DNA of 64,000 nucleotides from Deltaproteobacteria bacterium. Lineage in GTDB: Bacteria > Myxococcota_A > UBA9160 > JAJDAL01. Made by a program: the position numbers and the translations under genes. The DNA is taken from positions 85,066 through 149,065 of the forward strand of contig JAJDAL010000034.1 of NCBI GenBank assembly GCA_029261875.1, in the 5' to 3' direction. Under the pieces are notes generated by a model that was not told the DNA's origin, did no database searches, and saw only the letters and a program-made list of their open reading frames with translations. This document shows positions 3,833-33,203 of this stretch, in pieces (position 1 is the first letter of the stretch; each line of letters opens with the position of its first letter).

Positions 3833-5014
3833 ATGCGTCTCGTTGTCTGTCCGGTGTCTGCCCGCGACATCACCATTGTTGTAGCTGCTCACCTCTGTGC
3901 TCTTCTACTTGGACCAGCGGCTTCGGCGCAAGCTCCGATCAACCTCGAATATCTCTTCAGTCAGTCGGACAACCTGCGGGGTTCTTCAAATAATATTCAG
4001 CTCCGGACGAGAGTGGACGGCGTCACCCAGCCGTTCAACAGCATGTCGATTCAGCACGACGACCTACTGGTAACGATCTCAACCGAGATCTCTGCCAACC
4101 GTAGAACAGCTTCATTCTCCTCGATCGAGTTCTTTGCGTCCTACGCGAGTCCTTCCTTTGACGGAGAGTTCGATCTTGGCTTCGACGGCAAGGTTCCCTT
4201 TCGATTGACGGTCAGGGAGCTGGAATTCCACTGCCTGAACATCAACGCAAATCTAGCCATCAACTTGAACTTTGATGAAACCTTTTCATTCTGCGATGGA
4301 ACACTCACCACAGTATTCGAGGTACTCGGAAACACCGAAACAGTAGTGGAGACTCATCAGTCGGGTATCAACTTGCGGGGCACTTTCATTCCGACGCCCG
4401 ATCTGTCTGAGGTCGCAATAGAGATCTATACAGAGGTCGCCGCTACCTTCGACAACGACGCGTTCAATCTCAATGCGCTCGGACACTCTTTGGAGTTGCA
4501 GCCGAATCTCAGGCTGGTGTTGGATCTTCGGGGCTCTGCTGAATCAGACGCTCCACCACCACCGATTCCGGATGCCGATGGGGACGATGTTCCCGATATT
4601 CGAGACAACTGCCCCGACGAGGCCAACTCAGATCAGTTGGATAGAGATTTCGATTTCGTAGGCGACGCTTGCGACCCCTTCCCCGACGACCGCGACAATG
4701 AACAAGCCGAGTGTGAGGCGGATCTCCTCCTCTGCCAGATCAGCCCCGTATTCGTAGACACCGACGGTGACGGCGAAGATGACTCCACGGATTCATGCCC
4801 GGCCACTCCCGCCGCCCAGGAGGTTGATGGCGACGGCTGCTCTCTGGACCAGTTCTGCGGGCTGGTTGATGCCTCAGACCGAACCGGTAGTCGCGTCTGC
4901 AAAAAGAGCGACTGGAAGAACGACGAGCCGATCATGAAGTCGCGCGATAGGGACTGCACTGTGGATCGGGGTGACAGGGGCAGGGAGGACGATCGATGCG
5001 TTCCGTCCGTCTGA
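3833..5014 (+). CDS. Secreted A-family protein A2: unknown N-domain, TSP3 repeats, short Cys-heptad segment and A-CTD
   Basis: Leader with AASAQA. TSP3 repeats DADGDDVPDIRDNCPDEANSDQLDRDFDFVGDACDPFPDD. Then DNEQAECEADLLLC, followed by the tail GCSLDQFC..CKKSDWKNDEPIMKSRDRDCT..CVPSV. Confidence 0.85.
   Translation: MRLVVCPVSARDITIVVAAHLCALLLGPAASAQAPINLEYLFSQSDNLRGSSNNIQLRTRVDGVTQPFNSMSIQHDDLLVTISTEISANRRTASFSSIEFFASYASPSFDGEFDLGFDGKVPFRLTVRELEFHCLNINANLAINLNFDETFSFCDGTLTTVFEVLGNTETVVETHQSGINLRGTFIPTPDLSEVAIEIYTEVAATFDNDAFNLNALGHSLELQPNLRLVLDLRGSAESDAPPPPIPDADGDDVPDIRDNCPDEANSDQLDRDFDFVGDACDPFPDDRDNEQAECEADLLLCQISPVFVDTDGDGEDDSTDSCPATPAAQEVDGDGCSLDQFCGLVDASDRTGSRVCKKSDWKNDEPIMKSRDRDCTVDRGDRGREDDRCVPSV
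4751..5014 (+). repeat. Partial hinge copy (A-CTD only)
   Basis: FVDTDGDGEDDSTDSC..GCSLDQFC..CVPSV is paralogous to 284..553. The start context gatcgatgcgttcc of the following gene resembles the B-gene start context. Confidence 0.7.
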
Positions 5015-6711
5015 GATGCGAGAGTTTCTGTATCTGCCTGGTTGCGACGGCGCTTATGCCGACAATGGCTGCAGGGTTTCCGTTGGTTCCGGGCGATATC
5101 TTGATTTCGCCGACAATTTACATCTCATGTGCCGCGAGCCGACCGATCCTCGTGAATCCTGTAACGGGCGCGCAGCAGCGCTTGGAGAGCATGCCGCCAC
5201 CTACATCAGTCGCGTTTGCGCCCAATGGCGACCTGTTCCTCACTGATGGAGATGTGCAACGCATCGACCCCGCCACTGGCCTGGTCCTTCAGACCTACCA
5301 AGGTGGCAACCTTCATTCGCCGTATGGAATTTCCGTTAGTCCGAATGGCGAGGTCTATGTGATGGATTCGACGGCCAACATCTGCTTTGACGCTGAAAAT
5401 TTGACCTTAGTGAGGATCGATCCTGTGTCAGGCCAACAGACGTTGGTCACGTCATTTGTCTCGACGCTCGTCGTGGACACTGCGGTCGAACCCACCGGCG
5501 ATATCCTGGTCCTAGACTTGAGTACAGGGGTGATACGAGTCGATGCGACAACAGGTGATCAACAACTGTTGGCCAGCATAACCAGCCCCTTTGGCATTAC
5601 AGTTGAAGATACGGGCCAGGCCCTTGTAGCCGGTGAAGCACTGGTTCGCGTTGATCCAGTTAGTGGAAGCCAAAGCACGGTCTGGTCCGATGAGTTTTCG
5701 CTAGCCGTGGCGGTAGAGCCTTCCGAGAACATCGTCGTTTTTGAAGCCAATGGTGCGCTGATTCGCGTCGCACCGTCAGGTGCGTTTAGTTCAGTGATAT
5801 CGTCCGGCGGATTCTTGCCGGACCTAGTGGGGTTCGTTGATCTTGCGATCATGCCGGGAACGGCTCCGGACGCTGACTCTGACGGAATTCGAGACGATTC
5901 GGACAACTGCCCCAATATTGCGAACTTCGACCAGTCCGACCTCGATGGCGATAGCGTGGGCGATGTCTGCGACAACTGTCCCCAAGTGGCGAATTCTATC
6001 CAGACGGACAACGACGCGGACGGTATCGGAGATTTGTGTGATGCCTGCACCACAACCGCCTGGACCAATCCTCCCACGAACCCGCCCGATCAGAATCCAA
6101 TCAAGTCCCAGGTGAGAGTTACTCATCTCAGCCGTGGACCCGGCGAGCAGCGGATATTGGCGAAGGGCTTCACTAACCCAGCCACGTTTCCATCCAGCGG
6201 TTTGGAAGCTATTGGGTTGCACCTCGCAATCGAGGACTCTGATGGACTGCTCTACGAGGCAAACGTTCCCCCCGGCTTGGTAGGTGCCCTCCAGTGTGGA
6301 TCACGGGATGGATGGCGCGTTTCAACCACCAACAGCGGAAGGACGACATCGCGCTACACCAACCGCACCGGGGCGTTTCCGCCAGGCTGTTTGCCTGGGT
6401 CCGCACAGGGCGTGACATCCATTGTGGTCAAGGACCTGACAACGACCAACAAGCAATCGTTCCAGTACATCGTCAAGACGAAGGACCACAGCCTACTTCG
6501 GGTCCCAACACTGCCGTTGAATCTCGTCCAGTTCGACATTTCCCTTGGAGCGCAGACAACGCCAGGGGAAGCAACTCCCGAAGCCATTGAGGGGCAGTGC
6601 GCGGAATCGAAGTTTGAGGGTGACCCGATTCCTTCCAGCTCCCCGAAACCGTTCTGCAAGGTGCGGACAAGAAGCGGTGAGCTTGATCGCATCGATTGCA
6701 AGGGACAGTGA
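4996..6711 (+). CDS. Secreted protein with beta-propeller-like repeats (NHL/YVTN type by eye), TSP3 repeats and an unknown C-domain
   Basis: Leader MRSVRLRCESFCICLVATALMPTMAAG. Repeated motifs SPYGISVSPNGEVYVMDS, VVDTAVEPTGDILVLD and SPFGITVEDTGQALVAG. TSP3 block DADSDGIRDDSDNCPNIANFDQSDLDGDSVGDVCDNCPQVANSIQTDNDADGIGDLCDAC. The start overlaps the A2 stop by 19 nt. Confidence 0.8.
   Translation: MRSVRLRCESFCICLVATALMPTMAAGFPLVPGDILISPTIYISCAASRPILVNPVTGAQQRLESMPPPTSVAFAPNGDLFLTDGDVQRIDPATGLVLQTYQGGNLHSPYGISVSPNGEVYVMDSTANICFDAENLTLVRIDPVSGQQTLVTSFVSTLVVDTAVEPTGDILVLDLSTGVIRVDATTGDQQLLASITSPFGITVEDTGQALVAGEALVRVDPVSGSQSTVWSDEFSLAVAVEPSENIVVFEANGALIRVAPSGAFSSVISSGGFLPDLVGFVDLAIMPGTAPDADSDGIRDDSDNCPNIANFDQSDLDGDSVGDVCDNCPQVANSIQTDNDADGIGDLCDACTTTAWTNPPTNPPDQNPIKSQVRVTHLSRGPGEQRILAKGFTNPATFPSSGLEAIGLHLAIEDSDGLLYEANVPPGLVGALQCGSRDGWRVSTTNSGRTTSRYTNRTGAFPPGCLPGSAQGVTSIVVKDLTTTNKQSFQYIVKTKDHSLLRVPTLPLNLVQFDISLGAQTTPGEATPEAIEGQCAESKFEGDPIPSSSPKPFCKVRTRSGELDRIDCKGQ
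5869..6048 (+). repeat. Thrombospondin type-3-like Ca-binding repeat block (coding)
   Basis: Four consecutive D-x-D-x-D-G-x-x-D-x-C-D-x-C-P units read directly from the translation. Confidence 0.8.
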
Positions 6712-6719
6712 GGGACAAG

Positions 6720-7877
6720 ATGAGGCACTGGATCATCGCCATGTTACTCGGGCTCTCGACCCTTGCAGGAAAATCCAGCGCATTCGACAACGACTTCCAC
6801 GTGGTGCTCAACGGAATTGGCCGAGAGGTGATCGCCAACGACAGTTACACCGGAATCCTGGACACCGATGCCCGCACGATCAGTTGGTGGTACCGGTCGC
6901 ACATAGGGACGTTTCCATCCGTCTGGGGAATCATCTACTGGGGACAGACATGGTCCATTCAGCTGGAAGGTTTTGATGGCGGAAGTATCAACTGCGAGTG
7001 CGGGGGGAACAAGATCGCATGGACAGCGAACAACAACCCTGCGATGGGCTCTCTCCAGAATTGGCAATGGCATCACATAGTGATGACCGCTCCAGCGGGT
7101 GGAACTTACGGCGACATCAGGCTCTACTTGGATGGTGTTTTGCTCCCGACCCCCTCAGTGGTCGGAGGTAGCTTCGCAAACAGCTACGACACGATTCCGT
7201 TCATTCCCTATCGGGCAGGAGCGCGGAACCTCGGCAACCACGCAGACGCCGACATGGACGAAATCGCGCTGTGGGATGCAGAACTTAACGCGTCGGCAGT
7301 AGCGGAGATTTTCAACGGTGGGATTCCAACCGACCTTGAAGTCAACGGTGCTTCCTACACCAACGCGGGAGACCTTCAGCTCTACTGGAGATTCGAGGAA
7401 GGCAGCGGGCTGGAGACAGCTGACGTAACGGAGAGCGGTCACGACGGTGACCTCATCGGCGGTGACACGGTTTCATCCTGGGGAACCAACCCGCCGGGCT
7501 CAGGCTCCGACTCGGACGGCGATGGAATCCTCGACGGTTTCGACAATTGCGTGGACGACGCCAATCCTGGGCAGGAGGACGCTGATTCAGATCTAGTTGG
7601 AGACATCTGCGATCCCTTCCCCAGTGACCCAGACAACGAGCAGGCGCAATGCGAAGTGGACCTGGCTGATGCCGAAGCCGCTGCGAATGCTTGTTTCGGT
7701 GCAGCCCCAGCGTGCAGCGACGGGGTTGACAACGACAACGATGGATTTATCGACTTCTCGGGAAACGACCCCGAGTGTGTCACGGCGTTAGACAACGCCG
7801 AGGGATGCGGACTTGGCGCTGAACTGGTTCTACTAATCCCGCTGTTGCAACGGATACGCCGCAAGCGATCTTTTTAG
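6720..7877 (+). CDS. Secreted LamG (concanavalin-A-like) - TSP3 protein with a GC-TM-RRR (MYXO-CTERM-like) tail
   Basis: Leader MRHWIIAMLLGLSTLAGKSSA. LamG_3-type motifs DARTISWWYRS, WHHIVMTA, GDIRLYLDGVL and DMDEIALWDAELNASAVAEIFNGG. TSP3 repeats. Tail EGCGLGAELVLLIPLLQRIRRKRSF. Confidence 0.85.
   Translation: MRHWIIAMLLGLSTLAGKSSAFDNDFHVVLNGIGREVIANDSYTGILDTDARTISWWYRSHIGTFPSVWGIIYWGQTWSIQLEGFDGGSINCECGGNKIAWTANNNPAMGSLQNWQWHHIVMTAPAGGTYGDIRLYLDGVLLPTPSVVGGSFANSYDTIPFIPYRAGARNLGNHADADMDEIALWDAELNASAVAEIFNGGIPTDLEVNGASYTNAGDLQLYWRFEEGSGLETADVTESGHDGDLIGGDTVSSWGTNPPGSGSDSDGDGILDGFDNCVDDANPGQEDADSDLVGDICDPFPSDPDNEQAQCEVDLADAEAAANACFGAAPACSDGVDNDNDGFIDFSGNDPECVTALDNAEGCGLGAELVLLIPLLQRIRRKRSF
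7797..7874 (+). other. Putative C-terminal sorting signal (Gly-Cys, hydrophobic helix, Arg/Lys cluster)
   Basis: AEGCGLGAELVLLIPLLQRIRRKRSF has the architecture of the MYXO-CTERM / GC_trans_RRR class of exosortase-type tails. This is pattern recognition only. Confidence 0.55.
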
Positions 7878-10913: not shown

Positions 10914-11693
10914 CTAATTTTGATTCGTCTTACACGCCTTGCATACACACGCGTTCGGACACTCATCTGATAAGCCGCTTGCGCCTATGTGACAAGGGCC
11001 ACCGATGCCACCGTACGCCGGTCCACCAATTCCTGCATAACATGGCCCCCCGATTCCATCGTATGCCGGCCCACCAATTCCTGCGTAACATCTGTCACGC
11101 TTCCGGCGCCCTGATTGCTCCTCCGACGACCCCGCATCTAGCAACTCTACCAGCGCGCGAACATAATCATCGTTTCCGTAACGCGACATAAGTGTTTTCG
11201 ACATCTTTCGCCTAGTTTGCGAATCTATCTGGCCGGTCAAAGGTATTTGATTTTCGCGCTGGAAGGTCCGTATCGCTGCGATCGTGTTAGGTCCCTTCTT
11301 CCCGTCAATGACTCCGCATTCATATCCCAACAGCTTCAGTCCTACCTGGACCGCACTCGTCAATTCCGAAACAGACCCTTGTCGCACTCTCTCCGGATTC
11401 CGTCGAACTTTGACCCCGCCTGAGACAGGCGTAACTGACAATGATTTTCCGTTGACACGAAGCTCCCCTCGACTCGGGCAAATCACGACTGATGGATAGT
11501 ACTCGTACATGTACTGGTACTCGAACATCACCTTCCACAGCGATCCATCGGCGAGCTTGAATACTTCGTCATTTCCCATAAATGGTACGGGGCTAATAAT
11601 CGAAGATCGGTGGCACCGCTCGGCATACGCATCCGCTGAAACACCAACGGCAAAGAACGACGTAACTAGAAAAAGAAGGCGCGGGAATTCCAT
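10914..11693 (-). CDS. Secreted peptidoglycan-binding-domain protein with GIGGP repeats and a Cys-rich end
   Basis: Leader MEFPRLLFLVTSFFAVGVSADA. PG_binding_1-like LKLLGYECGVIDGKKGPNTIAAIRTFQRENQIPLTGQIDSQT. C-terminal (Y-x-GIGGP-x)x4 followed by CPNACVCKACK. The start overlaps the upstream stop as TAATG. Confidence 0.75.
   Translation of the reverse strand: MEFPRLLFLVTSFFAVGVSADAYAERCHRSSIISPVPFMGNDEVFKLADGSLWKVMFEYQYMYEYYPSVVICPSRGELRVNGKSLSVTPVSGGVKVRRNPERVRQGSVSELTSAVQVGLKLLGYECGVIDGKKGPNTIAAIRTFQRENQIPLTGQIDSQTRRKMSKTLMSRYGNDDYVRALVELLDAGSSEEQSGRRKRDRCYAGIGGPAYDGIGGPCYAGIGGPAYGGIGGPCHIGASGLSDECPNACVCKACKTNQN
10995..11090 (-). repeat. Four tandem 8-aa Y-x-G-I-G-G-P-x coding repeats
   Basis: CYAGIGGP AYDGIGGP CYAGIGGP AYGGIGGP read from the translation. 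Confidence 0.8.
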
Positions 11694-12034
11694 TACGGAT
11701 CGAAGCAACGAATCTTCCCGGTCCAGGGGGAGTAAATATTGATGTAGTACACAGAGGTTAATGCTGTGAGAAAGCCCTGCAGAAAGCTTCGTTCGGTCTC
11801 GATCTCTTGCACGTGACCCATTCCACACACATCACTCGCGTCAATCTCAATATCGCTCGGGACTAGGCCGAAAATCCAGAAGTTCTGCCAATCATTCTTT
11901 GACTCTTCCCGACCGGAGTGAGGCTGAGTCGGCTCAAATTCTTCCGCATAGAGGTTGATGTAGTGAGTACGGAAACAGCCCGACAACATCACACCTGCGA
12001 GAAGAAGACACATTACACATCGTCGCCAACGCAT
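11693..12034 (-). CDS. Bor/Iss-family-like lipoprotein (copy 2)
   Basis: Lipobox MRWRRCVMCLLLAGVMLSGC. FWIFGLVPSDIEIDASDVCG..VQEIETERSFLQGFLTALTSVYYINIYSPWTGKIRC parallels lambda Bor FFVSGIGQKKTVDAAKICGG..VKTETQQTFVNGLLGFITLGIYTPLEARVYC. Confidence 0.7.
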   Translation of the reverse strand: MRWRRCVMCLLLAGVMLSGCFRTHYINLYAEEFEPTQPHSGREESKNDWQNFWIFGLVPSDIEIDASDVCGMGHVQEIETERSFLQGFLTALTSVYYINIYSPWTGKIRCFDP

Positions 12035-13402: not shown

Positions 13403-14026
13403 TCAAGAAGGCGGTGCACAGCACGCGATCGAACGGAAGTCATTGCAGTTCCTCAGGTCAAATGCCCCGTTCGATTCCACCATCAGCCCGGACTCGGCGG
13501 TAAGCCGCCTCCATGCGTCACAAGACATGGAACCTGTCGATCCGCTTGATGGCGTGAAAGCCCCGGACACGTCCGCGATAACACTGTTCGTCGTGCCCCT
13601 AGGGAGCACCACAAAAACAGGTCGGACCCATGCCTCGCCCGATAGGGTTGGGACGTTGACTGTTTCGAGTACTTCCTTACTGGTGCACATCCGGCTATTC
13701 GAGAACTCCGCGTGGCAAGCCGACGTATATTCCAGGACACCATCACCTCCTTTAAACGTCGCGGTGGTAAAGCCCACTAGCTCGTATCGCGGCGACACCC
13801 CCGCCTCGCCCTGTGGCCCCTGCGCTCCATCTTGTCCAGCCGACCCAGCCGGTCCAGGTGGGCCTTCCGATTCCCACGAAATCGCAGCCTCGTTCGACTT
13901 GCACTGGCCCGGGATCGCAACGACACGGAGCTTCCCTGACTTTTGGTGCACACAGCCATCGATGGTTTCGCCTGCAGCCGTTCCAGCTAAAAGAACCGCC
14001 GCGCCAATTGCGATTAGTTCACGCAT
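13403..14026 (-). CDS. Secreted Q-family collagen-like protein Q1 with a Cys-rich endostatin/C-lectin-like C-domain
   Basis: GGAGG RBS. Leader MRELIAIGAAVLLAGTAAG. ETIDGCVHQKSGKLRVVAIPGQCKSNEAAISWE. Eight G-X-Y triplets. C-domain ELVGFTTATFKGGDG..ACHAEF..MC..SCDAWRRLTAESGLMVESNGAFDLRNCNDFRSIACCAP. Confidence 0.8.
   Translation of the reverse strand: MRELIAIGAAVLLAGTAAGETIDGCVHQKSGKLRVVAIPGQCKSNEAAISWESEGPPGPAGSAGQDGAQGPQGEAGVSPRYELVGFTTATFKGGDGVLEYTSACHAEFSNSRMCTSKEVLETVNVPTLSGEAWVRPVFVVLPRGTTNSVIADVSGAFTPSSGSTGSMSCDAWRRLTAESGLMVESNGAFDLRNCNDFRSIACCAPPS
13793..13864 (-). repeat. Collagen-like G-X-Y tract (8 triplets) in Q1
   Basis: GPP GPA GSA GQD GAQ GPQ GEA GVS read directly. Confidence 0.8.
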
Positions 14027-14067
14027 TACCTGCCTCCGCTTAGGGGTTCCCTCCGCCACCGGGAAGG

Positions 14068-14367
14068 TCAATAACAGACGGTGTCCCACACCCAATTTCC
14101 GTATGCATCCTGCCGTCGCACCTGCGTGCAATTATCTGTCCCGATGGGCGGAATATTGAGCCGTTCGACCGGTCTCACTGAAGGCGGAACAATGGGCGTA
14201 ATAGACGGTGGTTGCGGTGGCACGATGTTGATAGTTGAATCACAGATCGGAACATTGGCGCAGTCGCCACTCTCGTCACAGATCCATTCCCAGGTGCATG
14301 ATGCCGCCGCCGGGTTGGCAACTACAATGCACCCGATCAAAGCCAAGATCGCGAAAGTTGATCGCAT
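14068..14367 (-). CDS. Small secreted Cys-rich, Pro-rich protein
   Basis: Leader MRSTFAILALIGCIVVANPAAA. Then SCTWEWICDESGDCANVPICD, a Pro-rich PPQPPSITPIVPPSVRP and the C-terminal CTQVRR..WVWDTVCY. Lies 41 nt upstream of Q1 on the same strand. Confidence 0.6.
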   Translation of the reverse strand: MRSTFAILALIGCIVVANPAAASCTWEWICDESGDCANVPICDSTINIVPPQPPSITPIVPPSVRPVERLNIPPIGTDNCTQVRRQDAYGNWVWDTVCY

Positions 14368-15416: not shown

Positions 15417-15830
15417 ATCCTCCTTTGGTTCCGCTTCCGTGAACTAGTGGACCACTCGAAAGGTTAACTCGCCTACACAAACCTGACTCAGAATCCTTCC
15501 CTAGGTACCCGCAGTCGGCATGTGGTTTGCGTTGTGAAGAAACTAGGGGGTGAGGAACGATGAACGAGTTCGATCGAGTGGCGATTCGCCGCGCCATGCG
15601 GATCGTGGATGGGTGTGACCCAGGACCCCACCCGGGCCTTAGGGTCTCACTGTTGTCAGAGGAAATGCAGGACGAGCTGCGAGGGCTGATAGGGCGCTTG
15701 CCCTATATCACAGGGCTTCCGGTAGCCCAGATAGTCCTCCTAGTCTTCTATAGCTTCGGCTTGCGACCCTGATTCCCACCGCACCGAGTTCCACGCGTAG
15801 AATGGCCTCTGGCTTGCACAGGAGTTGGAC

Positions 15831-16409
15831 ATGTTGAAACAGACTCTTGTTCTCTTGGTCATGTTGGTTCTAGTTCCTGGCATCGCGGCTACCGAGACGA
15901 TCAACGGCTGTGTCCACCAGAAGTCCGGGAAGCTTCGGATCGTCGGTATTCCGGGACAGTGCAAGAGCAGCGAAGCACCGATCTCTTGGGAGGCTGAGGG
16001 ACCGCCCGGTCCCGAAGGGGCGAAGGGAGATAAGGGCGATAAAGGTGACCCCGGTGATCCCGCACCCCAGGCACAGCCGGTGGAACTCGTAGGTTTTACC
16101 GCGGCGCAAATCGCTGGCACGGACTCGTTCTTCGCGCTCAACACAGCCTGCGTCGATGAATTCCCCGGTAGTCACTTCTGCACAGCCACAGACATTGCAC
16201 AAGTATCCGTTCTGCCTGCCGGACTCATAGGCGATGCGTGGTTTACGCCAGCGCCCGGTCCAGATCTCAACTTCTTGAGCAGTTCTCGTGCCTGTAGTGG
16301 CTGGTCGCCTGGTGGCTCAACTGGCCTCCGCATCAATCACATCGGCGTAATAGTTCAGGGTGTGTGTAACCAATCCTTTTCGGCATCGTGCTGCGCACCC
16401 GCACCGTAA
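15831..16409 (+). CDS. Secreted Q-family collagen-like protein Q2
   Basis: CAGGAG lies 7 nt before the ATG. Leader MLKQTLVLLVMLVLVPGIAA. ETINGCVHQKSGKLRIVGIPGQCKSSEAPISWE. Seven G-X-Y triplets. C-domain VELVGFTAAQIAGTD..ACVDEF..FC..ACSGWSPGGSTGLRINHIGVIVQGVCNQSFSASCCAP. Confidence 0.8.
   Translation: MLKQTLVLLVMLVLVPGIAATETINGCVHQKSGKLRIVGIPGQCKSSEAPISWEAEGPPGPEGAKGDKGDKGDPGDPAPQAQPVELVGFTAAQIAGTDSFFALNTACVDEFPGSHFCTATDIAQVSVLPAGLIGDAWFTPAPGPDLNFLSSSRACSGWSPGGSTGLRINHIGVIVQGVCNQSFSASCCAPAP
15999..16061 (+). repeat. Collagen-like G-X-Y tract (7 triplets) in Q2
   Basis: GPP GPE GAK GDK GDK GDP GDP read directly. Confidence 0.8.
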
Positions 16410-16411
16410 CC

Positions 16412-17683
16412 ATGGCGTTTCGATTCAGACTTCCCGAGGCTCCTATGAAATGTGTCCATGTATTCGTTCTCCTCAGTTCCATGTTCCTTCTCGCGCCCCG
16501 AGCTACAGCGGAGATGGTGCCGCTGTTGATTGACCCGGTTTCAATCTCCGTCTCTGTCAGGATCACACAAGGCGAAGGTGCGCCGGTCGAGACAGACAAT
16601 TCAGGTACTGCTTCGGCATCCGCGCAGCTACATAGGAACTTGCTTAGTAATTCTTTCGGCGAGGGCAGTTTAAGCGCAGCCGTAGAAGCCGACCGGATCA
16701 GTTTTGCGGGAGCCGCTAGTGGCTTTAATACCGCAGGGGTCGGTAGTAGCCTAGTTAGGATTGTCTTGAGTAGCGAACTGGAGGTTGCGTTTGATGTCCC
16801 CGATATCGGATTTGCGCTTACGCCGGTCGTCCTGCAGTTCGTCAATGTTTCTCCTCCGAGCGCAACAATATCCATCTCATTCTTCAGCACACTTCTGAAC
16901 GCTGAGCTAACTACCCTCAATCAGACGATAGGTTCTGAAGATGCAGTTGTCCTCGACCTCCTTCCCGGAGATCGGATTATTGTCTCCGGAACCGTACAGG
17001 CTGGTGCCTTGTTCGTTCCCCCTTTCAACGGATCGGGGTCATTCTCAAACTCGTCCCAGTTCCGTTTTCAGGTATCGGACAATCCGAACAACCTTGTCGA
17101 GTGCCAGTCGAACCTCACTCAATGCGTCTCCGATTTGGGGGGTTGTTTGACCAATGCCGCAACCTGCGAGTCCGATCTAAATCTGGCCTTGGGGGATCTC
17201 GCATCGTGTAACGCAACCCTCACCCAACTGGCAACAGATGTTGCTTCATGTAACGACAGCCTTACCGCGTGCTCCACCGACCTCACACAAACGACAACCA
17301 GTCTCTCCCAATGCAGTACCGCTCTCGATTCTACAAGCACGCAGCTATCTGAGGCGCAATCGAGTCTAGACGCAGCCCTCTCCGATTTGGCGCAATGCCT
17401 TTTAGATCCCGGACTACAAGACAGTGATGGTGATGGCGTTCCAGATCCAGGAGATCTATGCCCAAACACAGCCACTACCGATCTCGCCGACGCCCTGGGC
17501 TGTTCACTCCACCAATTTTGCTCGATGGTCAACGCTACGAATCGAGTTGGCAGTCGGGTCTGCAGGAAATCCGATTGGGTCAATGATGAACCTCTGATGA
17601 AGGGTCGCGAGCGAGACTGCACGATCGACAAACGCGGCCGCGGACGAGATGACGATCTCTGCGTGCCCAATCCAGAATTCTAG
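16412..17683 (+). CDS. Secreted A-family protein A3: unknown N-domain, about 100 aa of heptad Cys/Leu coiled-coil-like segment, one TSP3 unit and A-CTD
   Basis: The ATG lies 3 nt after the Q2 stop; an alternative ATG at 16445 gives MKCVHVFVLLSSMFLLAPRATA. Tail DSDGDGVPDPGDLCPNTATTDLADALGCSLHQFC..CRKSDWVNDEPLMKGRERDCTIDKRGRGRDDDLCVPNPEF. Confidence 0.8.
   Translation: MAFRFRLPEAPMKCVHVFVLLSSMFLLAPRATAEMVPLLIDPVSISVSVRITQGEGAPVETDNSGTASASAQLHRNLLSNSFGEGSLSAAVEADRISFAGAASGFNTAGVGSSLVRIVLSSELEVAFDVPDIGFALTPVVLQFVNVSPPSATISISFFSTLLNAELTTLNQTIGSEDAVVLDLLPGDRIIVSGTVQAGALFVPPFNGSGSFSNSSQFRFQVSDNPNNLVECQSNLTQCVSDLGGCLTNAATCESDLNLALGDLASCNATLTQLATDVASCNDSLTACSTDLTQTTTSLSQCSTALDSTSTQLSEAQSSLDAALSDLAQCLLDPGLQDSDGDGVPDPGDLCPNTATTDLADALGCSLHQFCSMVNATNRVGSRVCRKSDWVNDEPLMKGRERDCTIDKRGRGRDDDLCVPNPEF
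17093..17398 (+). repeat. Heptad-periodic Cys/Leu segment (coding)
   Basis: Cys-to-Cys spacings are 7,7,7,14,14,7,14,28 residues. Leu/Val sits 3 residues before each heptad end. Counted directly in LVEC QSNLTQC VSDLGGC LTNAATC ESDLNLALGDLASC NATLTQLATDVASC NDSLTAC STDLTQTTTSLSQC ...LSDLAQC. Confidence 0.85.
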
Positions 17684-18085
17684 ATAGGAAATTCGATGCG
17701 TTCCTTTAGCCGAGTTTCTTTAGTACTAGCCACTGTAACTTTCGCGATGACTGGTCATGCCATTGACCTACCTGTGACCTACCTCGCCGACTTCAAGGAG
17801 TTCAGGCGAAACGCCATCGCTGGCGATTCACTCTCCTTCGACCTCTACACCGACGACGCCTGCACGGGGGTCGTGGCTCACGCGGAACTGAAGTTCGTGG
17901 GCGGTTCCGGGCTCACCGTCGAGAAGACGCTGCCCCAGAAGGCCAAGGGTCAGAAGCCGTCACCGACGAAGGGCGTGCGGCTCCACACGACGCTGTCGCC
18001 CGCGGCGGTGGCCGAGCAGCTCTACTTGAAGGTGACGGGCACCGGCGTCGTCGCGTTGGGAGATGAGTGCCAAGTGCAGGTGGCG
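17414..18085 (+). repeat. Conserved 'hinge' copy 2: A-CTD, 12-nt spacer and B N-domain
   Basis: See 284..985. The flanks (A body upstream, B head downstream) are unrelated between the two copies. Confidence 0.8.
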
Positions 18086-18562
18086 GGGATTCCTGGACCG
18101 GAAGGACCCAAGGGCGATCCCGGACCCTTGCTGGATGTCGCGGCGCGAGTCTATAGCGCGAATGACATAACGGTGGCGCGGTTCTCCAGCCAAGCGCTGA
18201 GTTTTCCAGAGGAGCGATGGGATACGGCTGCCCTGCATGACCCAGCCCAGCCATCAAGAATCGTGATTCCAGCAAGCGGGAACTACCTGATCTATGCGAA
18301 TCTGGCCTGGAGCGCTGCGGACCTGTTTGGAACGGAGCGCTTTGTGATGCAGTTTCGAGTGAATGGGTCACAGATAACCGCCTCACAAACCAACAATGCC
18401 GACGGGCTCCCTTTGAACCCAACCCATTCTCTTAGTACTGCCGCGCTTTTAGTAGCCGGAGACTACTTGGAGGTTGTAGTAGAGCACAGTGCCCCGAGCA
18501 ACCGGCGCATCGTGGCTCTTCCCGACTACTCACCGGACTTCGGAATCGTTCGTCTCCCATAA
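17696..18562 (+). CDS. Secreted B-family protein P5 with a C1q/TNF-like head
   Basis: Leader MRSFSRVSLVLATVTFAMTGHA. Conserved N-domain. Tract GIP GPE GPK GDP GPL. The head motifs IVIPASGNYLIYANLAW..FVMQFRVNGSQI..STAALLVAGDYLEVVVE..SPDFGIVRLP match the C1q jelly-roll pattern. Starts 12 nt after the A3 stop. Confidence 0.85.
   Translation: MRSFSRVSLVLATVTFAMTGHAIDLPVTYLADFKEFRRNAIAGDSLSFDLYTDDACTGVVAHAELKFVGGSGLTVEKTLPQKAKGQKPSPTKGVRLHTTLSPAAVAEQLYLKVTGTGVVALGDECQVQVAGIPGPEGPKGDPGPLLDVAARVYSANDITVARFSSQALSFPEERWDTAALHDPAQPSRIVIPASGNYLIYANLAWSAADLFGTERFVMQFRVNGSQITASQTNNADGLPLNPTHSLSTAALLVAGDYLEVVVEHSAPSNRRIVALPDYSPDFGIVRLP
18086..18130 (+). repeat. Collagen-like G-X-Y tract (5 triplets) in P5
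   Basis: Read directly from the translation. Confidence 0.8.
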
Positions 18563-20436: not shown

Positions 20437-21036
20437 CTACGACGCAACGTTTGCCGCCTTTGGCTTGCTGACAACACGCCCCACGCTTGCCTTCGAGACG
20501 CCCACTAGGCCGGCGATCTCGCGGATCGTGCGGCCAGACTCACGCAGTCTCACGATTCGGCGCTGTAGCTCGCCGGTGACAGTCTTGGGGCGTCCTATGC
20601 GCGTTCCATTGCGTCGAGCGGCCCGCATACCCATCGCGATTCGATCACGAATCAGGTCACCTTCAAACTCCGCGATAGCCCCGAGAACGTGAAAGAGAAG
20701 CCTCCCCGTTGGCGTCGATGTATCAATCGCTTGATCAAGAACAATGAGGTCAATTCCGAGTGCCTCTAGCTCTCCCGCCAATGTTGTGAGGTGGCGAACG
20801 CTTCGGGCCAATCGATCGAGCTTCCAGACCAAAATAGCGTCAAAACGTCTCCGTCTGCCGTCCGCAATCATCTGATCGATCGCAGGCCTACGCTGAGCGG
20901 AGCCTGACACTCCATTGTCTATGTAGACCTCGACTACCTCAAGGTTTCGTACGGCGGCATATGACGTTAGTTCATCGATCTGGTTCTCGGCATGCTGCTC
21001 CTTCGTCGAAACACGACCGTACACGGCGACTCGCAT
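20437..21036 (-). CDS. Small serine recombinase (resolvase/invertase family)
   Basis: MRVAVYGRVSTKEQ catalytic Ser context, LVWKLDRLARS, GRLLFHVLGAIAEFE, and the C-terminal HTH GRTIREIAGLVGVSKASV. Confidence 0.9.
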   Translation of the reverse strand: MRVAVYGRVSTKEQHAENQIDELTSYAAVRNLEVVEVYIDNGVSGSAQRRPAIDQMIADGRRRRFDAILVWKLDRLARSVRHLTTLAGELEALGIDLIVLDQAIDTSTPTGRLLFHVLGAIAEFEGDLIRDRIAMGMRAARRNGTRIGRPKTVTGELQRRIVRLRESGRTIREIAGLVGVSKASVGRVVSKPKAANVAS

Positions 21037-21424
21037 GGCAATCCCTCCGGCTCTCAAATCTAGATGCAACGGTCTCGTTTGCATAGGAAACGAATTGAGA
21101 AAACGAAAGTACGGTCTTCCACTTTGGAGTCCCCGCCCTGGAGCCCGAAGCACACGTAGGGTCGCGCTTAACAGCCCCACGCAGAACATGCGGGGAGTTG
21201 AGATCGGACAGAGGCCCCCCACCCCCCTTCTGGGTAATGGGTCCCATCTAGCTGTCACTTGGGGCCCCAGCGGCGCTCCCCCAAAAAAAACTGTTCGCGC
21301 GCGAGGGAGCTCCGACTAAACTCTTGTGGGGCGCGGCTCGGCTCGGCCGGCCGAATGTCGGGATCCTGCAACCGACGTGCCGCGCCCTCCTTTTACGCTG
21401 CAGGACGCGCCAGCAGGAGGCGCA

Positions 21425-22323: not shown

Positions 22324-22575
22324 ATGCGAACTGAATCTCTTCCTCACCTCTTAACGCAACAAATTGTTGCTGACCTTCTCCACATCTCCGAACGAACGCT
22401 CGAAAGATGGCGGTGCACTGGCGTTGGGCCGCCATTTGCCAAAGTCGGTCGCCGATGCCTCTACCGGGTCAAAGACCTGGAGGAATGGGTCGAGAAATGC
22501 AGCCACACCTCCAGAGAGAGAGCCCTTGCGCCGATGGGCAAGCCGACGCCTGATGGCCAGTTCGGCGGAGCATGA
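22324..22575 (+). CDS. AlpA/excisionase-like HTH DNA-binding protein
   Basis: LLTQQIVADLLHISERTLERWRCTGVGPPFAKVGRRCLYRVKDLEEWV fits the HTH_17/AlpA pattern. The stop overlaps the next start as ATGA. Confidence 0.7.
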   Translation: MRTESLPHLLTQQIVADLLHISERTLERWRCTGVGPPFAKVGRRCLYRVKDLEEWVEKCSHTSRERALAPMGKPTPDGQFGGA

Positions 22576-25166
22576 GGATGGATGCTCACACTGATACCAG
22601 CACCTTCTCAGTCGAAAGTCACGGACCGATGGCAACAGCGATGCGGGGGACCCTCGAACTCCTCGTCCCGCACGGGTCAGTTAGTGAAATACGCATTCTC
22701 AATACTCGACAGGGAACTGTGTCGGGATACTTCGACGACCTCGACCTCATGGCGGCCGCCGCGGCGCAATGGGACGGAAACGCTACCGGTGTGTTCTTTA
22801 CCCTAAATCCCGTTACGTCAGATCTCCTCGCACGGTCGAGCAACAGGTTAAAGCCGTACTCGAGATTCACGACTAGAGACGCCGAAATTACGGGTCGCGT
22901 ATGGCTCCCTATTGATGTCGATCCAATTCGCCCACGTGGAATCTCCTCGAACACCGCGGAGCACCAAGCCGCCCTTGAGCAAGCGAAGAAGATACGGGAT
23001 TACCTGGCCGAACGGGGATGGCCTGCTCCTATATTCGCGGACTCCGGAAATGGGGGGCACCTTCTCTACAGAATCAAGCAAACCAATGACGCCAGCACCA
23101 CGGACTTGATTAACCGCTGCCTAAACTCAATCGCGTTTCGCTTTTCGGATGACGTTGTATCGATCGACACAGCAGTAGGAAATGCAGCTCGAATTTGGAA
23201 GCTGTATGGAACACTCGCCTGCAAAGGAGACAGCCTCCCCGATCGCCCACACCGTCGGTCGCAGGTCCTTTCTGCCCCAGCGTGCCTCGACGAGGTCAAT
23301 GAAGTGCAACTTGAAGCACTCGCTGCAGAAAGCCCGTCTTCGAAGCTATCAGTCGGAAATGGCATCGATGTGGACCGTTGGCTCGAAGACCGTGGGCTTT
23401 CGGGGGTTTTGAAGGTCCCTTGGCAAGGGGGTTTCAAATACGTCTTTGACGAATGCCCGTGGAACGCCGAACACACGAATCGATCAGCCTATATCGTTCA
23501 ATTTTCATCCGGGGCGATCGCCGCTGGGTGTCATCACAACAGTTGCAGCGACAACGATTGGCATGCGCTGAGAGATCAATTCGAGCCAGGATGGAGAGAG
23601 AGACGAAACAACGCCCAGACCCACACCGATGCGCCAGGTCCGTCGGATGATGGATGGCTCGCTCCCGCTCCCTTGCCTGCGCCCCACCCAGCCGTTCCGA
23701 GACTCTCAGTGGATCTCCTACCGGAGCCTTTTCGAGGATGGGTCGCCGACATAGCCGAGCGGGTCAACGTACCCCTTGAGTTCGTAGCAGCTCCCGCAAT
23801 TGTCGCAGCGGGTTCACTGGTGGGACGAGGGGTAGGTATTCGGCCAAAAAGTTGCGACGACTGGACAGTTGTTCCGAATCTTTGGGGGGGTGTCGTCGGT
23901 CCTCCTGGCGTGATGAAGAGTGCCGCGATAGCGGAAGCGACCCGCCCGCTACGTCTGTTGGCTATCGAGGCCGGAAAACAATTCGAACAGTCCCGTGCAA
24001 AACATGAAAACCTTCGCGCCATCTTGGAAATTAGGCTCAAGGCCGCTCATGAGCAGGGGAAGGCTGCGGCGAAATCAAACGACGAGAAGAAACTGGAGTC
24101 GATCCGCGAGGAGATGCTGACGATCCAGCAGGAGATTGAGCAAACAGAGATAACGGAGCGGCGTTTCCAGACACAAGACGCGACAACCGAGAAAATCGCG
24201 GAACTTCTCCGCAAGAACCCTCGCGGAATTCTGATCAACCGCGACGAACTCGCGGGCTGGCTCCGGACCCTCGACAAACCAGGGCGCGAGGGCGATCGGG
24301 AGTTCTATCTCGAAGCCTGGAATGGAAGCGGGGGATTTACTTACGACCGGATAGGACGCGGCACAATTCATGTCCCTGCCGTCACTCTGAGTGTTCTGGG
24401 CGGCATTCAACCTGGAAAGCTTCGTTCCTACATCAACGCCTCACTCGCAGACGACGCGGGGAATGACGGGCTTCTCCAGCGTGTCCAGCTCCTCGTCTGG
24501 CCCGACGACCTAGGAGAATGGCGCAACGTGGACCGATGGCCCGATCAGCTGGCGAAAAAACGAGCCTTCAGCGTCTACTCGGGACTGTCAGTCGTAGACG
24601 CCGAATTGATGGGGGCAGCCAAGGACCAATGCAGCGATGTGCCAGCCTTTCGATTCTCTCCCGAGGCCCAGGAACTATTTGACGAATGGCGGAGCGAGCT
24701 TGAACTGCGACTCCGCAGCCCCGAAGCGGCAGAAACTCCGGCGTTCACGGCTCACCTAGCCAAGTATCGCTCACTAATGCCGTCACTGGCGCTGATCTTC
24801 TCTTTGATCGAGATGCTGGATCGGAACGATGCAACCACGTGCGTTTCGCTTGAGTCTGCCAAGCTCGCGGCTGGGTGGTGTGAGTTTCTAGAGATTCACG
24901 CAAAGAAGGTATACGCGAAAGAGCTTCAGACGGGTGTTTCCGCAGCGCTCGCGTTGGCCGGGAAAATCAAAGGCGGAGCCGCTTCCCATGGCATGTCTAT
25001 ACGTGACATATCACAGCGAGAATGGTCGGGGCTCACCTCTCCGTCACTCGTTCACGAAGGCGTAGATGTTCTTGAGCGACATGGGTGGCTTCGTCGGACC
25101 ACCGTCCCGACCGGCGGTCGCCCATCTGGGATCATCCACATTCACCCGCAGCTGAGAAAACCATGA
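22572..25166 (+). CDS. Replication protein: AEP-type primase-polymerase N-domain, Zn-binding segment and DUF3987-like P-loop domain
   Basis: AEP motifs PIDVDP (DxD) and SGNGGHLLY (sGxGxH). Zn-binding segment CPWNAEH..CHHNSC. GPPGVMKS, and FYLEAWNGSGGFTYDRIGRGTIHVPAVTLSVLGGIQPGKL typical of DUF3987/YfjI-like proteins. Confidence 0.85.
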   Translation: MRMDAHTDTSTFSVESHGPMATAMRGTLELLVPHGSVSEIRILNTRQGTVSGYFDDLDLMAAAAAQWDGNATGVFFTLNPVTSDLLARSSNRLKPYSRFTTRDAEITGRVWLPIDVDPIRPRGISSNTAEHQAALEQAKKIRDYLAERGWPAPIFADSGNGGHLLYRIKQTNDASTTDLINRCLNSIAFRFSDDVVSIDTAVGNAARIWKLYGTLACKGDSLPDRPHRRSQVLSAPACLDEVNEVQLEALAAESPSSKLSVGNGIDVDRWLEDRGLSGVLKVPWQGGFKYVFDECPWNAEHTNRSAYIVQFSSGAIAAGCHHNSCSDNDWHALRDQFEPGWRERRNNAQTHTDAPGPSDDGWLAPAPLPAPHPAVPRLSVDLLPEPFRGWVADIAERVNVPLEFVAAPAIVAAGSLVGRGVGIRPKSCDDWTVVPNLWGGVVGPPGVMKSAAIAEATRPLRLLAIEAGKQFEQSRAKHENLRAILEIRLKAAHEQGKAAAKSNDEKKLESIREEMLTIQQEIEQTEITERRFQTQDATTEKIAELLRKNPRGILINRDELAGWLRTLDKPGREGDREFYLEAWNGSGGFTYDRIGRGTIHVPAVTLSVLGGIQPGKLRSYINASLADDAGNDGLLQRVQLLVWPDDLGEWRNVDRWPDQLAKKRAFSVYSGLSVVDAELMGAAKDQCSDVPAFRFSPEAQELFDEWRSELELRLRSPEAAETPAFTAHLAKYRSLMPSLALIFSLIEMLDRNDATTCVSLESAKLAAGWCEFLEIHAKKVYAKELQTGVSAALALAGKIKGGAASHGMSIRDISQREWSGLTSPSLVHEGVDVLERHGWLRRTTVPTGGRPSGIIHIHPQLRKP

Positions 25167-25543: not shown

Positions 25544-25731
25544 TGAACGACCTCCGAGAGGCTCTACGGGCCACGATAGAGGCAGCCGACGACCTTCGCG
25601 CGCGACGCGACGCGTTGCGCACCGCGATCGAAGCGGGTAATACGGACGAGATCGTTCGGTCTGCCCGGCGACTACTGGGGTTGACTTATGGAGAGCCTGC
25701 GAAACGCCATCGCCCTGATCCGAGTCTCTAG
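25543..25731 (+). CDS. Small helical protein preceding and overlapping recombinase 1
   Basis: GTG start in a TAGTG overlap. LREALRATIEAADDLRARRDALRTAIEAGNTDEIVRSARRLLG has a paralog at 33009..33203 in the same position relative to recombinase 2. Confidence 0.45.
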   Translation: MNDLREALRATIEAADDLRARRDALRTAIEAGNTDEIVRSARRLLGLTYGEPAKRHRPDPSL

Positions 25732-27214
25732 CGACGCCCAGGCTGGGCCCGACAGACAGGGCCTCGGCGTGCAGCGCACGACCTGTGAGCAGGTGGCGGC
25801 CACCAACGACCTCAACATCATCGAGTGGGTCGAACTCGAAGGCGTCTCGGGCGCCGCCGTACTCGCAGACAGCCGATTCTCCGAATTGCTCCGGAGGCTT
25901 CAGTCCCCGCGGATCGATGCCGTGATCGTGGCCGCCTTCGACCGACTCTTTCGACGTGGTCGATTCTCGGATTACGCAATCCTCGACGCATTCGCCGAAA
26001 CTGGAACTCGGCTCTTCTCCAGCGATGGAGAGTTAGATCTCGCCGCGGAAAGCGGTGGGTTGCTCGGCGTCATCCGTGGTGAGCTAGCTGGCATGGAGCG
26101 GCGGCGGATCATCGAACGAACTACAGCGGGAAGGCGGCGCAAGCGCCGGATGAAGGGCGTTAGGGCAGAGGGACCCGTAGGCATGCCCCGGGGCGTTCAG
26201 TTCGACTACGACACAGAAAAGTGGAAATACGTGTGGCCCGAGGCCGAGAAGGTGCGCGAGGCGTTCCGACTGTTCCTCGCTGGGGTACACAACCTTCGCG
26301 AGATCCATCGACGCACGGGAATCGGGAGCCACAAGGATGCCTCGGCGTCCGTCGGTCGGGTTCTCCGCCAGCCTCTCTATATGGGGATCTATCGCGTTGA
26401 CCGCACCTGGGAGGGAAAGCGTGCGCATCCATTGCCCCCCGAGGAGATTCAGGAGCACGAAGTACTCAATCCCCCGTTGGTCCCGCGCAATCAGTGGGAG
26501 GAAGTCCAGCGGATCCTCGCGGCCCGCCACGCCAGCCGCCCTCCGCGGCGTGACCCCGAAACGCTCGGGGCGACCTATACCGGAAATTTGACCTGCGCTG
26601 CCTGCGGCAAACGAGTCCTAACGGCGCGCGACTCGCGCGAGTACACGGCATACGCCTGCCCGCGGAAGCGCGACCGCTGTGGCGCCGTGCACGTTTCGAC
26701 GCGTCTCGCGGATCCGGTGCTTGATGCCGAACTCGAACGCATCCTCGGTGATTTCGACACGCTCTCGTTGATCTTGGAAGCCAGCCAGAACGAGGAAGTG
26801 CGGGACGCAAGCCCGAGTGCGCGGGAGATCGGTCGGCGCTTGACTCATGTCGAGAACCGGCGGCAGCGAACGATCGAGTCCTACATCGAGGGTGTGATCA
26901 CCCGGGAGGAGCGCGACAAGCTGATCACCTCCATCTCGAACGAGAAGGCTGGACTCGAAGCCCTGATGTCCGCCGAAGACGAAATCGAGCTACCTGAAGG
27001 CTTCGTGGACGACGTGGTCATGGTCTTCGCCTCGTGGCGAGATCTCTCGCGAGAACGCAAGCGTGAGCTTCTGCGTGCGTACCAAGTTGAGATCGTTGTC
27101 GAGAAACGCGGCGCGCGCAAACGTTCCTGGCTCCATGTCGATCGGATTCGGCTCGGACTATTGCCTGCTCATGTGTGGCTGTACAAGAAGATGAAACGGT
27201 TGGGAATCGAGTGA
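25688..27214 (+). CDS. Large serine recombinase 1
   Basis: IALIRVSSDAQ catalytic Ser context, VAAFDRLFRR and GELAGMERRRIIERTTAGRR. Recombinase domain, Cys pairs CAACGKR..YACPRKRDRCG and a coiled-coil C-part. Confidence 0.92.
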   Translation: MESLRNAIALIRVSSDAQAGPDRQGLGVQRTTCEQVAATNDLNIIEWVELEGVSGAAVLADSRFSELLRRLQSPRIDAVIVAAFDRLFRRGRFSDYAILDAFAETGTRLFSSDGELDLAAESGGLLGVIRGELAGMERRRIIERTTAGRRRKRRMKGVRAEGPVGMPRGVQFDYDTEKWKYVWPEAEKVREAFRLFLAGVHNLREIHRRTGIGSHKDASASVGRVLRQPLYMGIYRVDRTWEGKRAHPLPPEEIQEHEVLNPPLVPRNQWEEVQRILAARHASRPPRRDPETLGATYTGNLTCAACGKRVLTARDSREYTAYACPRKRDRCGAVHVSTRLADPVLDAELERILGDFDTLSLILEASQNEEVRDASPSAREIGRRLTHVENRRQRTIESYIEGVITREERDKLITSISNEKAGLEALMSAEDEIELPEGFVDDVVMVFASWRDLSRERKRELLRAYQVEIVVEKRGARKRSWLHVDRIRLGLLPAHVWLYKKMKRLGIE

Positions 27215-33008: not shown

Positions 33009-33203
33009 ATGAACGACGGAATACGCGACGCCTTGCGGAGAACGACTCGAATCGCCGAAGATCGGCGCCGGAAGCTGCGTGAAGCCCTTGAATCCGGTAA
33101 CACCGAAGAGCTTTCAAACGCCGTACGGGCGTTTCTTGGAGATGAGCTTGCCGAACGCGATCGCCCTCATCCGAGTCTCGAGCGAAGCACAAGCCGGGTC
33201 TGA
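33009..33203 (+). CDS. Small helical protein preceding and overlapping recombinase 2
   Basis: IRDALRRTTRIAEDRRRKLREALESGNTEELSNAVRAFLG is a paralog of 25543..25731. Confidence 0.45.
   Translation: MNDGIRDALRRTTRIAEDRRRKLREALESGNTEELSNAVRAFLGDELAERDRPHPSLERSTSRV

Follow-up and report, generated by a model that had tools for sequence, protein, structure and literature searches.

What is the C-terminal domain that sets one of five neighbouring paralogs apart from the other four, and how did it come to stand there? The question is raised by a 64,000-nt stretch of contig JAJDAL010000034.1 (positions 85,066 to 149,065) in the Deltaproteobacteria bacterium assembly GCA_029261875.1, analysed here over its whole length and called the window. 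It encodes five related exported proteins, P1 to P5 (the B family), in which an N-terminal domain (N-domain) is followed by a short run of collagen-like G-X-Y triplets and a C-terminal head. An earlier note on this DNA had proposed that the head of P5, encoded at 17696–18562, is a C1q/TNF-like jelly roll that takes the place of the head of P1 to P4. We hold with high confidence, for fold and swap taken jointly, that P5 carries a C1q/TNF-like jelly roll as its head and that this domain has replaced the usual head of the family.

Architecture of P5

The ORF (open reading frame) list gives P5 as a protein of 288 amino acids (aa) encoded on the forward strand at 17696–18562, with an ATG start that lies 12 nt past the stop of the preceding gene and is preceded at 5 nt by an AGGAA Shine-Dalgarno-like motif. 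The exact protein occurs once in the public collection, where it is unnamed. Both the position of the gene and the head peptides quoted for it earlier (IVIPASGNYLIYANLAW, FVMQFRVNGSQI, LLVAGDYLEVVVE and FGIVRLP) were confirmed in the translation.

Direct reading of the sequence places a Sec-type signal peptide at 17696–17761 (aa 1–22, MRSFSRVSLVLATVTFAMTGHA), with a basic n-region, a hydrophobic core, a small-x-small site and no lipobox cysteine; cleavage is likely after GHA. The mature protein comprises the B-family N-domain (17765–18079, aa 24–128, from DLPV to CQVQ, with two invariant cysteines), the G-X-Y tract (18086–18130, the five triplets GIP GPE GPK GDP GPL), at which similarity to P3 stops, and the head (18131–18559, aa 146–288, 143 aa), assigned by an AlphaFold2 (AF2) model, Foldseek and profile comparison. 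A signal-peptide-like segment is present in all five paralogs and in all relatives described below.

C1q/TNF-like fold of the P5 head

The AF2 model of P5 residues 142–288, built with an alignment of 38 single-domain members of the head family (alignment A2), is an all-β structure of ten strands with a predicted local distance difference test score (pLDDT) of 94.6 and a predicted template modelling score (pTM) of 0.88. When compared with the PDB by Foldseek, the model returned 398 matches at E ≤ 1e-3, and the best 50 of these 398 are C1q/TNF-superfamily domains except for a few phage fibre or tail entries. The top match is 9EUL, the knob and petal structure of the central spike of phage 812 (E 4e-12, query-normalised TM-score (TMq) 0.78), and C1QL, Caprin-2 and C1q follow at E 2e-9 to 6e-8, with C1QL2 at E 2e-9 and a target-normalised TM-score (TMt) of 0.83. 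Further matches include C1QL1-3, CTRP5, Cbln1, Eiger, CD40L, TL1A, APRIL, EDA and a cyanophage short-tail-fibre domain; for C1QL, C1q, Caprin-2, CTRP5, Cbln1 and the ligands of the TNF family the Foldseek probability is 1.00 and TMt reaches 0.84. A fold search of BFVD retrieved phage and giant-virus C1q-domain, collagen-repeat, tail-fibre and minor-tail proteins at E 7e-14 and weaker, with TM-scores of 0.8–0.88.

Profile comparison leads to the same superfamily. Run against the PDB sequences, the A2 profile matches 9EUL and 9EUF, both of the phage 812 protein, at E 6e-11; with few exceptions, the lower-scoring matches are to CD40L, C1q, GITRL, Eiger, C1QL, collagen X NC1 or TNF, and the alignments to C1q-C, C1QL and GITRL extend over 70–85 residues at E 0.02–0.5. 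The C1q/TNF assignment that had been made by eye from the strand pattern is thus borne out by structural and sequence matches to that superfamily.

No Pfam or NCBIfam model is reached at threshold by the P5 head or its relatives. For BclA_C (PF18573, threshold 38 bits), P5 scores 12.9 bits (E 0.1) and the best relative 32.3 bits (E down to 1e-7), scores that point to a distant relation and not to membership. P5 has no match to Pfam C1q (PF00386) or TNF (PF00229) at E ≤ 1, and its head relatives reach Pfam TNF at 12–14 bits against a threshold of 23. Lying below the curated thresholds, P5 is therefore not filed in Pfam C1q, TNF, BclA_C or Collagen. A single-sequence search of the PDB with the P5 head gave matches that we judged spurious, and a word-indexed search with the head alone gave none, so that an exhaustive HMMER search was needed. 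Applied with residues 142–288 to a search space of 1.84 billion cluster representatives, it retrieved 3,212 homologues at E ≤ 1e-3 and 261 at E ≤ 1e-10.

The family so delineated has a recognisable core. Its A2 motifs are ARVY, FDSERWDT...H, G-x-Y-x-I, (R/L)-x-NG, AGDYVE and SPEFG, and P5, which matches the family profile over its full length at E 2e-49, keeps all invariant and near-invariant residues, among them D35, H40, G54 and Y56 (A2 numbering). Conserved hydrophobic residues sit on strands A, C, F and H; in C1q and TNF, the core of the trimer is built from this sheet. On strand C the G-x-Y-x-(F/I) core, which we take to be part of the C1q signature, is conserved, and G54 and Y56 within it are invariant. 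The ERWD...H motif is conserved as well and is specific to this bacterial and phage family. We conclude that the P5 head belongs to a distinct, large and uncurated bacterial and phage C1q-like family, of which the phage 812 knob is the solved representative. A polar cluster of E32, D35, H40 and R47 (motif SERWDT...H...R), invariant or nearly so across the family, lies between strands B and C; in P5 it is encoded at about 18212–18259 of the window.

The head occurs in varied surroundings. Among the best 150 of the 3,212 homologues, it is a single C-terminal domain in 65, a tandem pair in 45 and a triple in 30; tandem arrays of up to 9–10 copies are seen in proteins of 1,100–3,400 aa (P0006–P0011 and others). 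Several single-domain members carry G-X-Y triplets directly upstream of the head (6 in P0036, 15 in P0071; also P0085 and P0144), and two distant proteins pair it with the N-domain of the B family itself, P0047 with 8 triplets and P0136 with none. The heads closest to that of P5, in P0022, P0026 and P0020, are 40–44% identical to it and are joined to N-termini of other, unrelated kinds.

Replacement of the usual head

The paralogs with the usual head are P1 (566–1390, forward strand, 274 aa), P2 (1404–2213, forward, 269 aa), P3 (7902–8756, forward, 284 aa), whose N-domain is nearest to that of P5, and P4 (12432–13367, reverse), which has 303 aa when read from its probable start, an ATG at 13343. 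A five-way alignment shows what P1 to P5 have in common, a Sec-type signal peptide and a mature domain running from DLPVxY to CQxQ with two invariant cysteines. The claim that all five share one N-domain therefore stands, with its size corrected from about 115 aa to 105 aa. The G-X-Y tract, too, is found at the equivalent position in all five, as had been noticed before, with five triplets in P5 and P3, six in P4 and two in P1 and P2. Runs of at least five triplets number only five in the 85,313 residues of the six-frame ORFs of the window, and all five fall either in the B family (P3, P4 and P5) or in a second collagen-like family, so that they are no chance occurrences.

Past the tract, P1 to P4 still align with one another and P5 does not. 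The usual heads share the motifs xFDGxGxDxG, (Y/F)ExPxCxGxxY and TFPLPLP, in agreement with the relationship proposed for them in the earlier note, and the motifs reach ten metagenomic relatives in the forms D..G...G, CTG and F-x-P-P-F. The fold check that the same note had suggested for these heads came back empty: the AF2 model of the usual head of P3 is poor (pLDDT about 40), the full-length P3 model has no significant structural match in the PDB, and the usual-head profile matches no PDB sequence. When the P1–P4 head profile was aligned with the P5 head-family profile, no relation was seen (hhalign probability 0.1%), a result by which the idea of the usual head as a very divergent C1q-like domain was ruled out.

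The N-domain tells the direction of the exchange. That of P5 is 88% identical to P3, 82% to P2, 63% to P4 and 55% to P1, and 32–44% identical to all relatives outside this genome, including the two others that carry a C1q-like head. The DNA of P3 and that of P5 agree at 79% of positions across the mature N-domain and as far as the GPEGP codons in the G-X-Y tract; identity is at noise level beyond these codons (about 36%), and also upstream. Because P5 nests among usual-head members and similarity stops in the tract, the parsimonious reading of the sequences is that a C1q-like cassette replaced the usual head inside the paralog clade of P2, P3 and P5, with the recombination junction within the G-X-Y tract. 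This accords with the replacement that had been proposed from the first inspection of the locus.

The swap is not recent, as the synonymous divergence (dS) between the N-domains of P3 and P5 is about 1.0. The ratio of non-synonymous to synonymous divergence (dN/dS) of the N-domain is 0.07 for this pair and 0.15–0.23 for the other pairs; the N-domain is under purifying selection, and the low ratio means that both P3 and P5 have been kept by selection. A relic of the usual head was looked for downstream of P5 and none was found. No compositional break specific to P5 marks its head as foreign: in most of the paralogs, the heads have a lower G+C content at third codon positions (GC3) than the N-domains.

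The N-domain and its C-terminal modules

The N-domain family is defined by a signal peptide and the pattern DLPVxY...F(D/E)LY.D..C...LYLKVTG.G...CQxQ with its two invariant cysteines; P5 carries this pattern and matches the N-domain profile at E 1e-69. In the P3 model the domain is a β-sandwich with one helix (pLDDT above 90 over residues 21–127), which has no significant fold match in the PDB and no Pfam or NCBIfam match. A search with a profile of N-domain plus usual head (A3) brought up 31 unnamed proteins, and a scan of GTDB species representatives nine further B-family loci. The family thus amounts to some 40 proteins, all uncharacterised and for the most part encoded in Myxococcota or Binatia metagenome-assembled genomes (MAGs); the labels are Polyangiaceae, Myxococcota, Deltaproteobacteria and Candidatus Binatia, with a single doubtful Enterobacteriaceae label. 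All of the relatives carry the signal peptide and the N-domain (alignment A4).

What follows the N-domain is highly diverse, with at least seven types of C-terminal module joined to it through 0–56 G-X-Y triplets. The first is the usual head ending in F-x-P-P-F (P1–P4 and ten others; alignment A7), and the second is the C1q-like head (P5, P0047 and P0136). The third consists of Cys-rich ETDVDCGG...CPRC repeats, and the fourth is a small domain of roughly 90 aa, sometimes followed by DUF1554-like sequence. In the fifth, G-X-Y triplets lead to other β-rich knobs (7–8 triplets in P0162 and P0174, 21 in P0179, 49 in L012 and 56 in L013). YadA-like SGGxxN repeats (L010) or β-helix-like sequence (L005) make up the sixth, and an FGE-sulfatase-like domain (L011) the seventh. 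Exchangeable heads, a suggestion drawn earlier from the five paralogs, are a property of the whole family of N-domain proteins.

The threshold of Pfam Collagen (PF01391, 27.2 bits) is passed by L012 (74 bits), L013 (92 bits) and P0179 (37 bits), and in some members a true collagen stalk stands at the junction of N-domain and head. The two longest tracts belong to genes of Myxococcota MAGs (L012:7794-9116 and L013:7851-9188) that encode the N-domain, 49 or 56 uninterrupted triplets and a β-rich knob of 120–124 aa; their knobs align with the C1q-like heads at an hhalign probability of 19–26%, a value that is only suggestive of a relation. Another relative, P0005 (L001:10001-10660), has a small non-collagen C-terminal domain and is encoded between relaxase-like and TraG/TrwB-like genes on a contig that has genes for ParA, ParB and a Rep_O-like protein as well and looks like a plasmid or an integrative and conjugative element.

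Stalk, trimer and the linker alternative

How might such a protein work? We think it rather probable that P5 is a secreted mosaic of a constant N-domain and a C1q/TNF-like binding head, in which trimerisation zips the G-X-Y tract and the N-domain docks. P5 is exported by the Sec route and consists of a 105-aa β-sandwich N-domain with two invariant cysteines, a five-triplet linker and a 143-aa head. Three chains would associate through the head by analogy with C1q, TNF, BclA and the phage 812 knob. Head association would draw the few triplets of the tract together into a triple helix of roughly 4 nm, and the helix would gather three N-domains at the base. The N-domain may then serve as a constant docking or anchoring module and the head as a variable, putative ligand-binding module, probably for glycans or surfaces.

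The knob in 9EUL is a TNF-like domain that sits, as part of a trimer, on the tip of a trimeric coiled coil, and binding of a saccharide of the cell wall has been proposed for it (PMC13433997). All of the solved C1q/TNF relatives at the top of the fold search are likewise trimeric in their PDB entries. The hydrophobic residues conserved on strands A, C, F and H of the head lend indirect support to a trimer as well. At the junction of N-domain and head, the G-X-Y register is held in distant members, up to 49–56 triplets. By analogy with the trimeric nearest solved homologue, and given the 21–56 triplets at the junction in relatives, trimerisation of P5 is a reasonable inference.

Several observations weigh against a stalked trimer, a design that the earlier note had put forward for B proteins in general and that stays a proposal. 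The tract of P5 has 15 residues and those of P1 and P2 have 6, and the Pfam Collagen threshold is unmet in every paralog of the window (P5 has no match and P4 scores 14.2 bits); for the Bacillus Bcl proteins the shortest collagen-like region is 27 residues (PMC8968730). The tract is absent from P0136, which has the same N-domain and the same head type, and from most of the usual-head relatives, and is therefore dispensable. Homologous heads also occur in tandem arrays of 2, 3, 4, 5, 7 or 9 copies, among which multiples of three are not favoured, and because such arrays lie within one chain, homotrimerisation is not the sole conceivable assembly. As the N-domain has no recognisable relative, the case for docking is one of conservation and position.

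These short or missing tracts and intrachain arrays, together with a pLDDT of about 42 for the G-X-Y segment in the P3 monomer model, would be accommodated by a protein with the same fold and the same swap in which the tract is a flexible linker, P5 is a monomer or some other assembly, and the jelly roll is lectin-like, with neither a stalk nor an obligate trimer. We regard this as rather unlikely. A mere linker would not need the 49–56 uninterrupted triplets of L012 and L013, nor does it explain why the periodicity is strict at the junction in P3, P4, P5, P0047, P0162, P0165, P0174 and P0179; tandem domains also fit stacked trimers along a fibre, and the trimeric state of the nearest homologue and of the top solved fold relatives speaks against it as well.

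Genomic context and remaining alternatives

The gene directly upstream of P5 (16388–17683, forward strand) encodes a secreted protein with thrombospondin-type-3 (TSP3) repeats, stops 12 nt ahead of P5 and is probably co-transcribed with it. P1, P3 and P5 each begin 12–24 nt after such a gene (2–550, 6696–7877 and 16388–17683, respectively), a spacing that suggests operons and perhaps a functional pairing; P2 directly follows P1, and P4 follows 13403–14131, a member of the second collagen-like family. Secreted TSP3-repeat proteins are encoded at 2–550, 3833–5014 and 16388–17683 on the forward strand and also at 4996–6711 and 6696–7877. Three of these proteins share a Cys-rich C-terminal module, CS..QFC...SDWxNDEPxMKxRxRDCTxD, that is 56–64% identical among them.

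The region from 1 to 20 kb is a cluster of exported proteins, with NHL/TSP3, LamG, peptidoglycan-binding and collagen-like members. The second collagen-like family (the A family) consists of two secreted proteins, at 13403–14131 (reverse) and 15825–16409 (forward), with 41% identity between them; both have a signal peptide, a short segment that contains Cys (ETIxGCVHQKSGKLR..IPGQCKS), 7–8 G-X-Y triplets and a Cys-rich head ending in CCAP, and their Pfam Collagen matches are sub-threshold only. A PG_binding_1 protein at 10914–11828 (reverse) ends in GIGGP(A/C)Y(A/D/G) repeats. The G+C content is 0.55–0.59 at 1–24 kb and 0.62–0.66 at 44–64 kb, on the right side of the window. Mobile-element genes lie at 20–35 kb (20437–21258, reverse; 22572–25166, 25688–27214 and 33079–34668, forward) and encode a resolvase with a helix-turn-helix (HTH) domain, a DUF3987 protein and two large serine recombinases. 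The window contains no tRNA genes.

From the mosaic proposed for P5 a wider reading may be drawn, in which the N-domain is a dedicated docking module that places interchangeable and mostly trimeric heads on a common extracellular scaffold of Myxococcota and Binatia cells. The heads in question would be the C1q-like and F-x-P-P-F types, the Cys-rich repeats, the YadA-like repeats and the collagen-stalked knobs, and the scaffold might be the TSP3-repeat proteins encoded directly upstream of P1, P3 and P5. The B family would then be a cellular counterpart of the receptor-binding cassettes of phages, serving in the recognition of prey, kin or surfaces, with the paralog arrays as its repertoire. 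As a complete statement we consider this decidedly unlikely.

A constant N-terminus with highly variable C-termini, and several paralogs in one island, are also what a family of polymorphic effectors or toxins would present, with the N-domain as the trafficking part, the C-termini as payloads directed at competitors, and the P5 head as a payload or targeting variant; the FGE-sulfatase-like domain of one relative and the conjugative-element-like contig of another fit the same picture. The recognisable C-terminal modules, however, are binding or fibrous (C1q-like heads, collagen, Cys-rich and YadA-like repeats) and not toxins, no toxin Pfam matches were obtained, and no small immunity-like gene consistently follows the B genes, since P2 follows P1 and the others precede unrelated genes. 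We consider such a function of P5 very unlikely.

Most improbable is an origin of P5 as a prophage-derived receptor-binding protein, left on the adjacent integrative element as the remnant of a tail fibre or spike. In favour of it, the head has its nearest solved or predicted relatives among the spike, tail-fibre and minor-tail proteins of phages; a Streptomyces phage protein whose gene is flanked by minor tail genes matches at E 2e-4, head relatives match PHROG virion and tail families, and the serine recombinases and the DUF3987 protein are 2–15 kb away. Against it, every B protein has a Sec signal peptide, a feature absent from virion fibres; P1–P5 have no genes for capsid, tail, portal or terminase around them; neither the N-domain nor the usual head is matched in 50,697 phage genomes, PLSDB plasmids or IMG/VR pattern scans; and the B-family relatives lie in chromosomal-looking MAG contexts.

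Significance and comparison with known systems

The combination of an unvarying base with a C1q/TNF-like tip, with or without a collagen-like stalk between them, is already known from C1q, BclA and phage fibres, and the assignment of the head mainly makes an unnamed protein interpretable. What is new is, first, the N-domain family as the constant partner of at least seven C-terminal modules; this disulfide-containing family and its module repertoire were undescribed before, and it is so far seen only in soil Myxococcota or Binatia-type MAGs. New as well are a C1q-like family of 3,212 cluster representatives that has no curated model and is now anchored by the phage 812 knob, and a clean, datable in-genome replacement of a head at a G-X-Y junction. 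If the N-domain is a docking module, it would offer a handle on how surface recognition diversifies in poorly studied predatory or social bacteria. The B family would then be a cellular counterpart of the receptor-binding cassettes of phages, serving in the recognition of prey, kin or surfaces, with the paralog arrays as its repertoire.

The closest known counterpart of the head is the knob of the Staphylococcus phage 812 spike (9EUL), the only solved structure with similarity at the sequence level and the best fold match, a TNF-like jelly roll placed distally on a trimeric stalk. The spike differs from P5 in that its stalk is a 22-nm coiled coil and not a G-X-Y tract, a glycerophosphodiesterase petal domain follows the knob, and the whole belongs to the virion and lacks a signal peptide; its identity to the P5 head is only about 18%. 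Also comparable are the collagen-repeat fibres of phages and giant viruses with C1q-like tips in BFVD, which share the head fold (E 7e-14 to 1e-10, TM-score about 0.8–0.88) and the same logic of G-X-Y plus tip. These fibres, however, are virion components, whereas P5 has a signal peptide and an N-domain not found in viral collections.

The BclA and other Bcl exosporium proteins of Bacillus and Clostridioides resemble P5 in layout, with an N-terminal attachment domain, a collagen-like region and a trimerising C1q/TNF-like C-terminal domain, and BclA_C is the only Pfam family touched by P5 and its head relatives (12.9–32.3 bits against the threshold of 38). Their collagen regions span 27–1,158 residues (PMC8968730), compared with 15 in P5. 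The N-terminal domain of BclA is a 38-residue BxpB-binding segment (PMC10470788), whereas P5 has in its place a 105-aa fold with a disulfide, preceded by a Sec signal peptide; and the Bcl proteins belong to Gram-positive spores, whereas the relatives of the B family come mostly from Myxococcota or Binatia MAGs. The eukaryotic C1q proteins (C1q, C1QL1-3, CTRP5, Cbln1, Caprin-2 and collagen X NC1) and the TNF ligands share the ten-strand jelly roll of the P5 head at TMt 0.75–0.84, but in sequence P5 does not match Pfam C1q or TNF significantly, and its collagen tract is far shorter.

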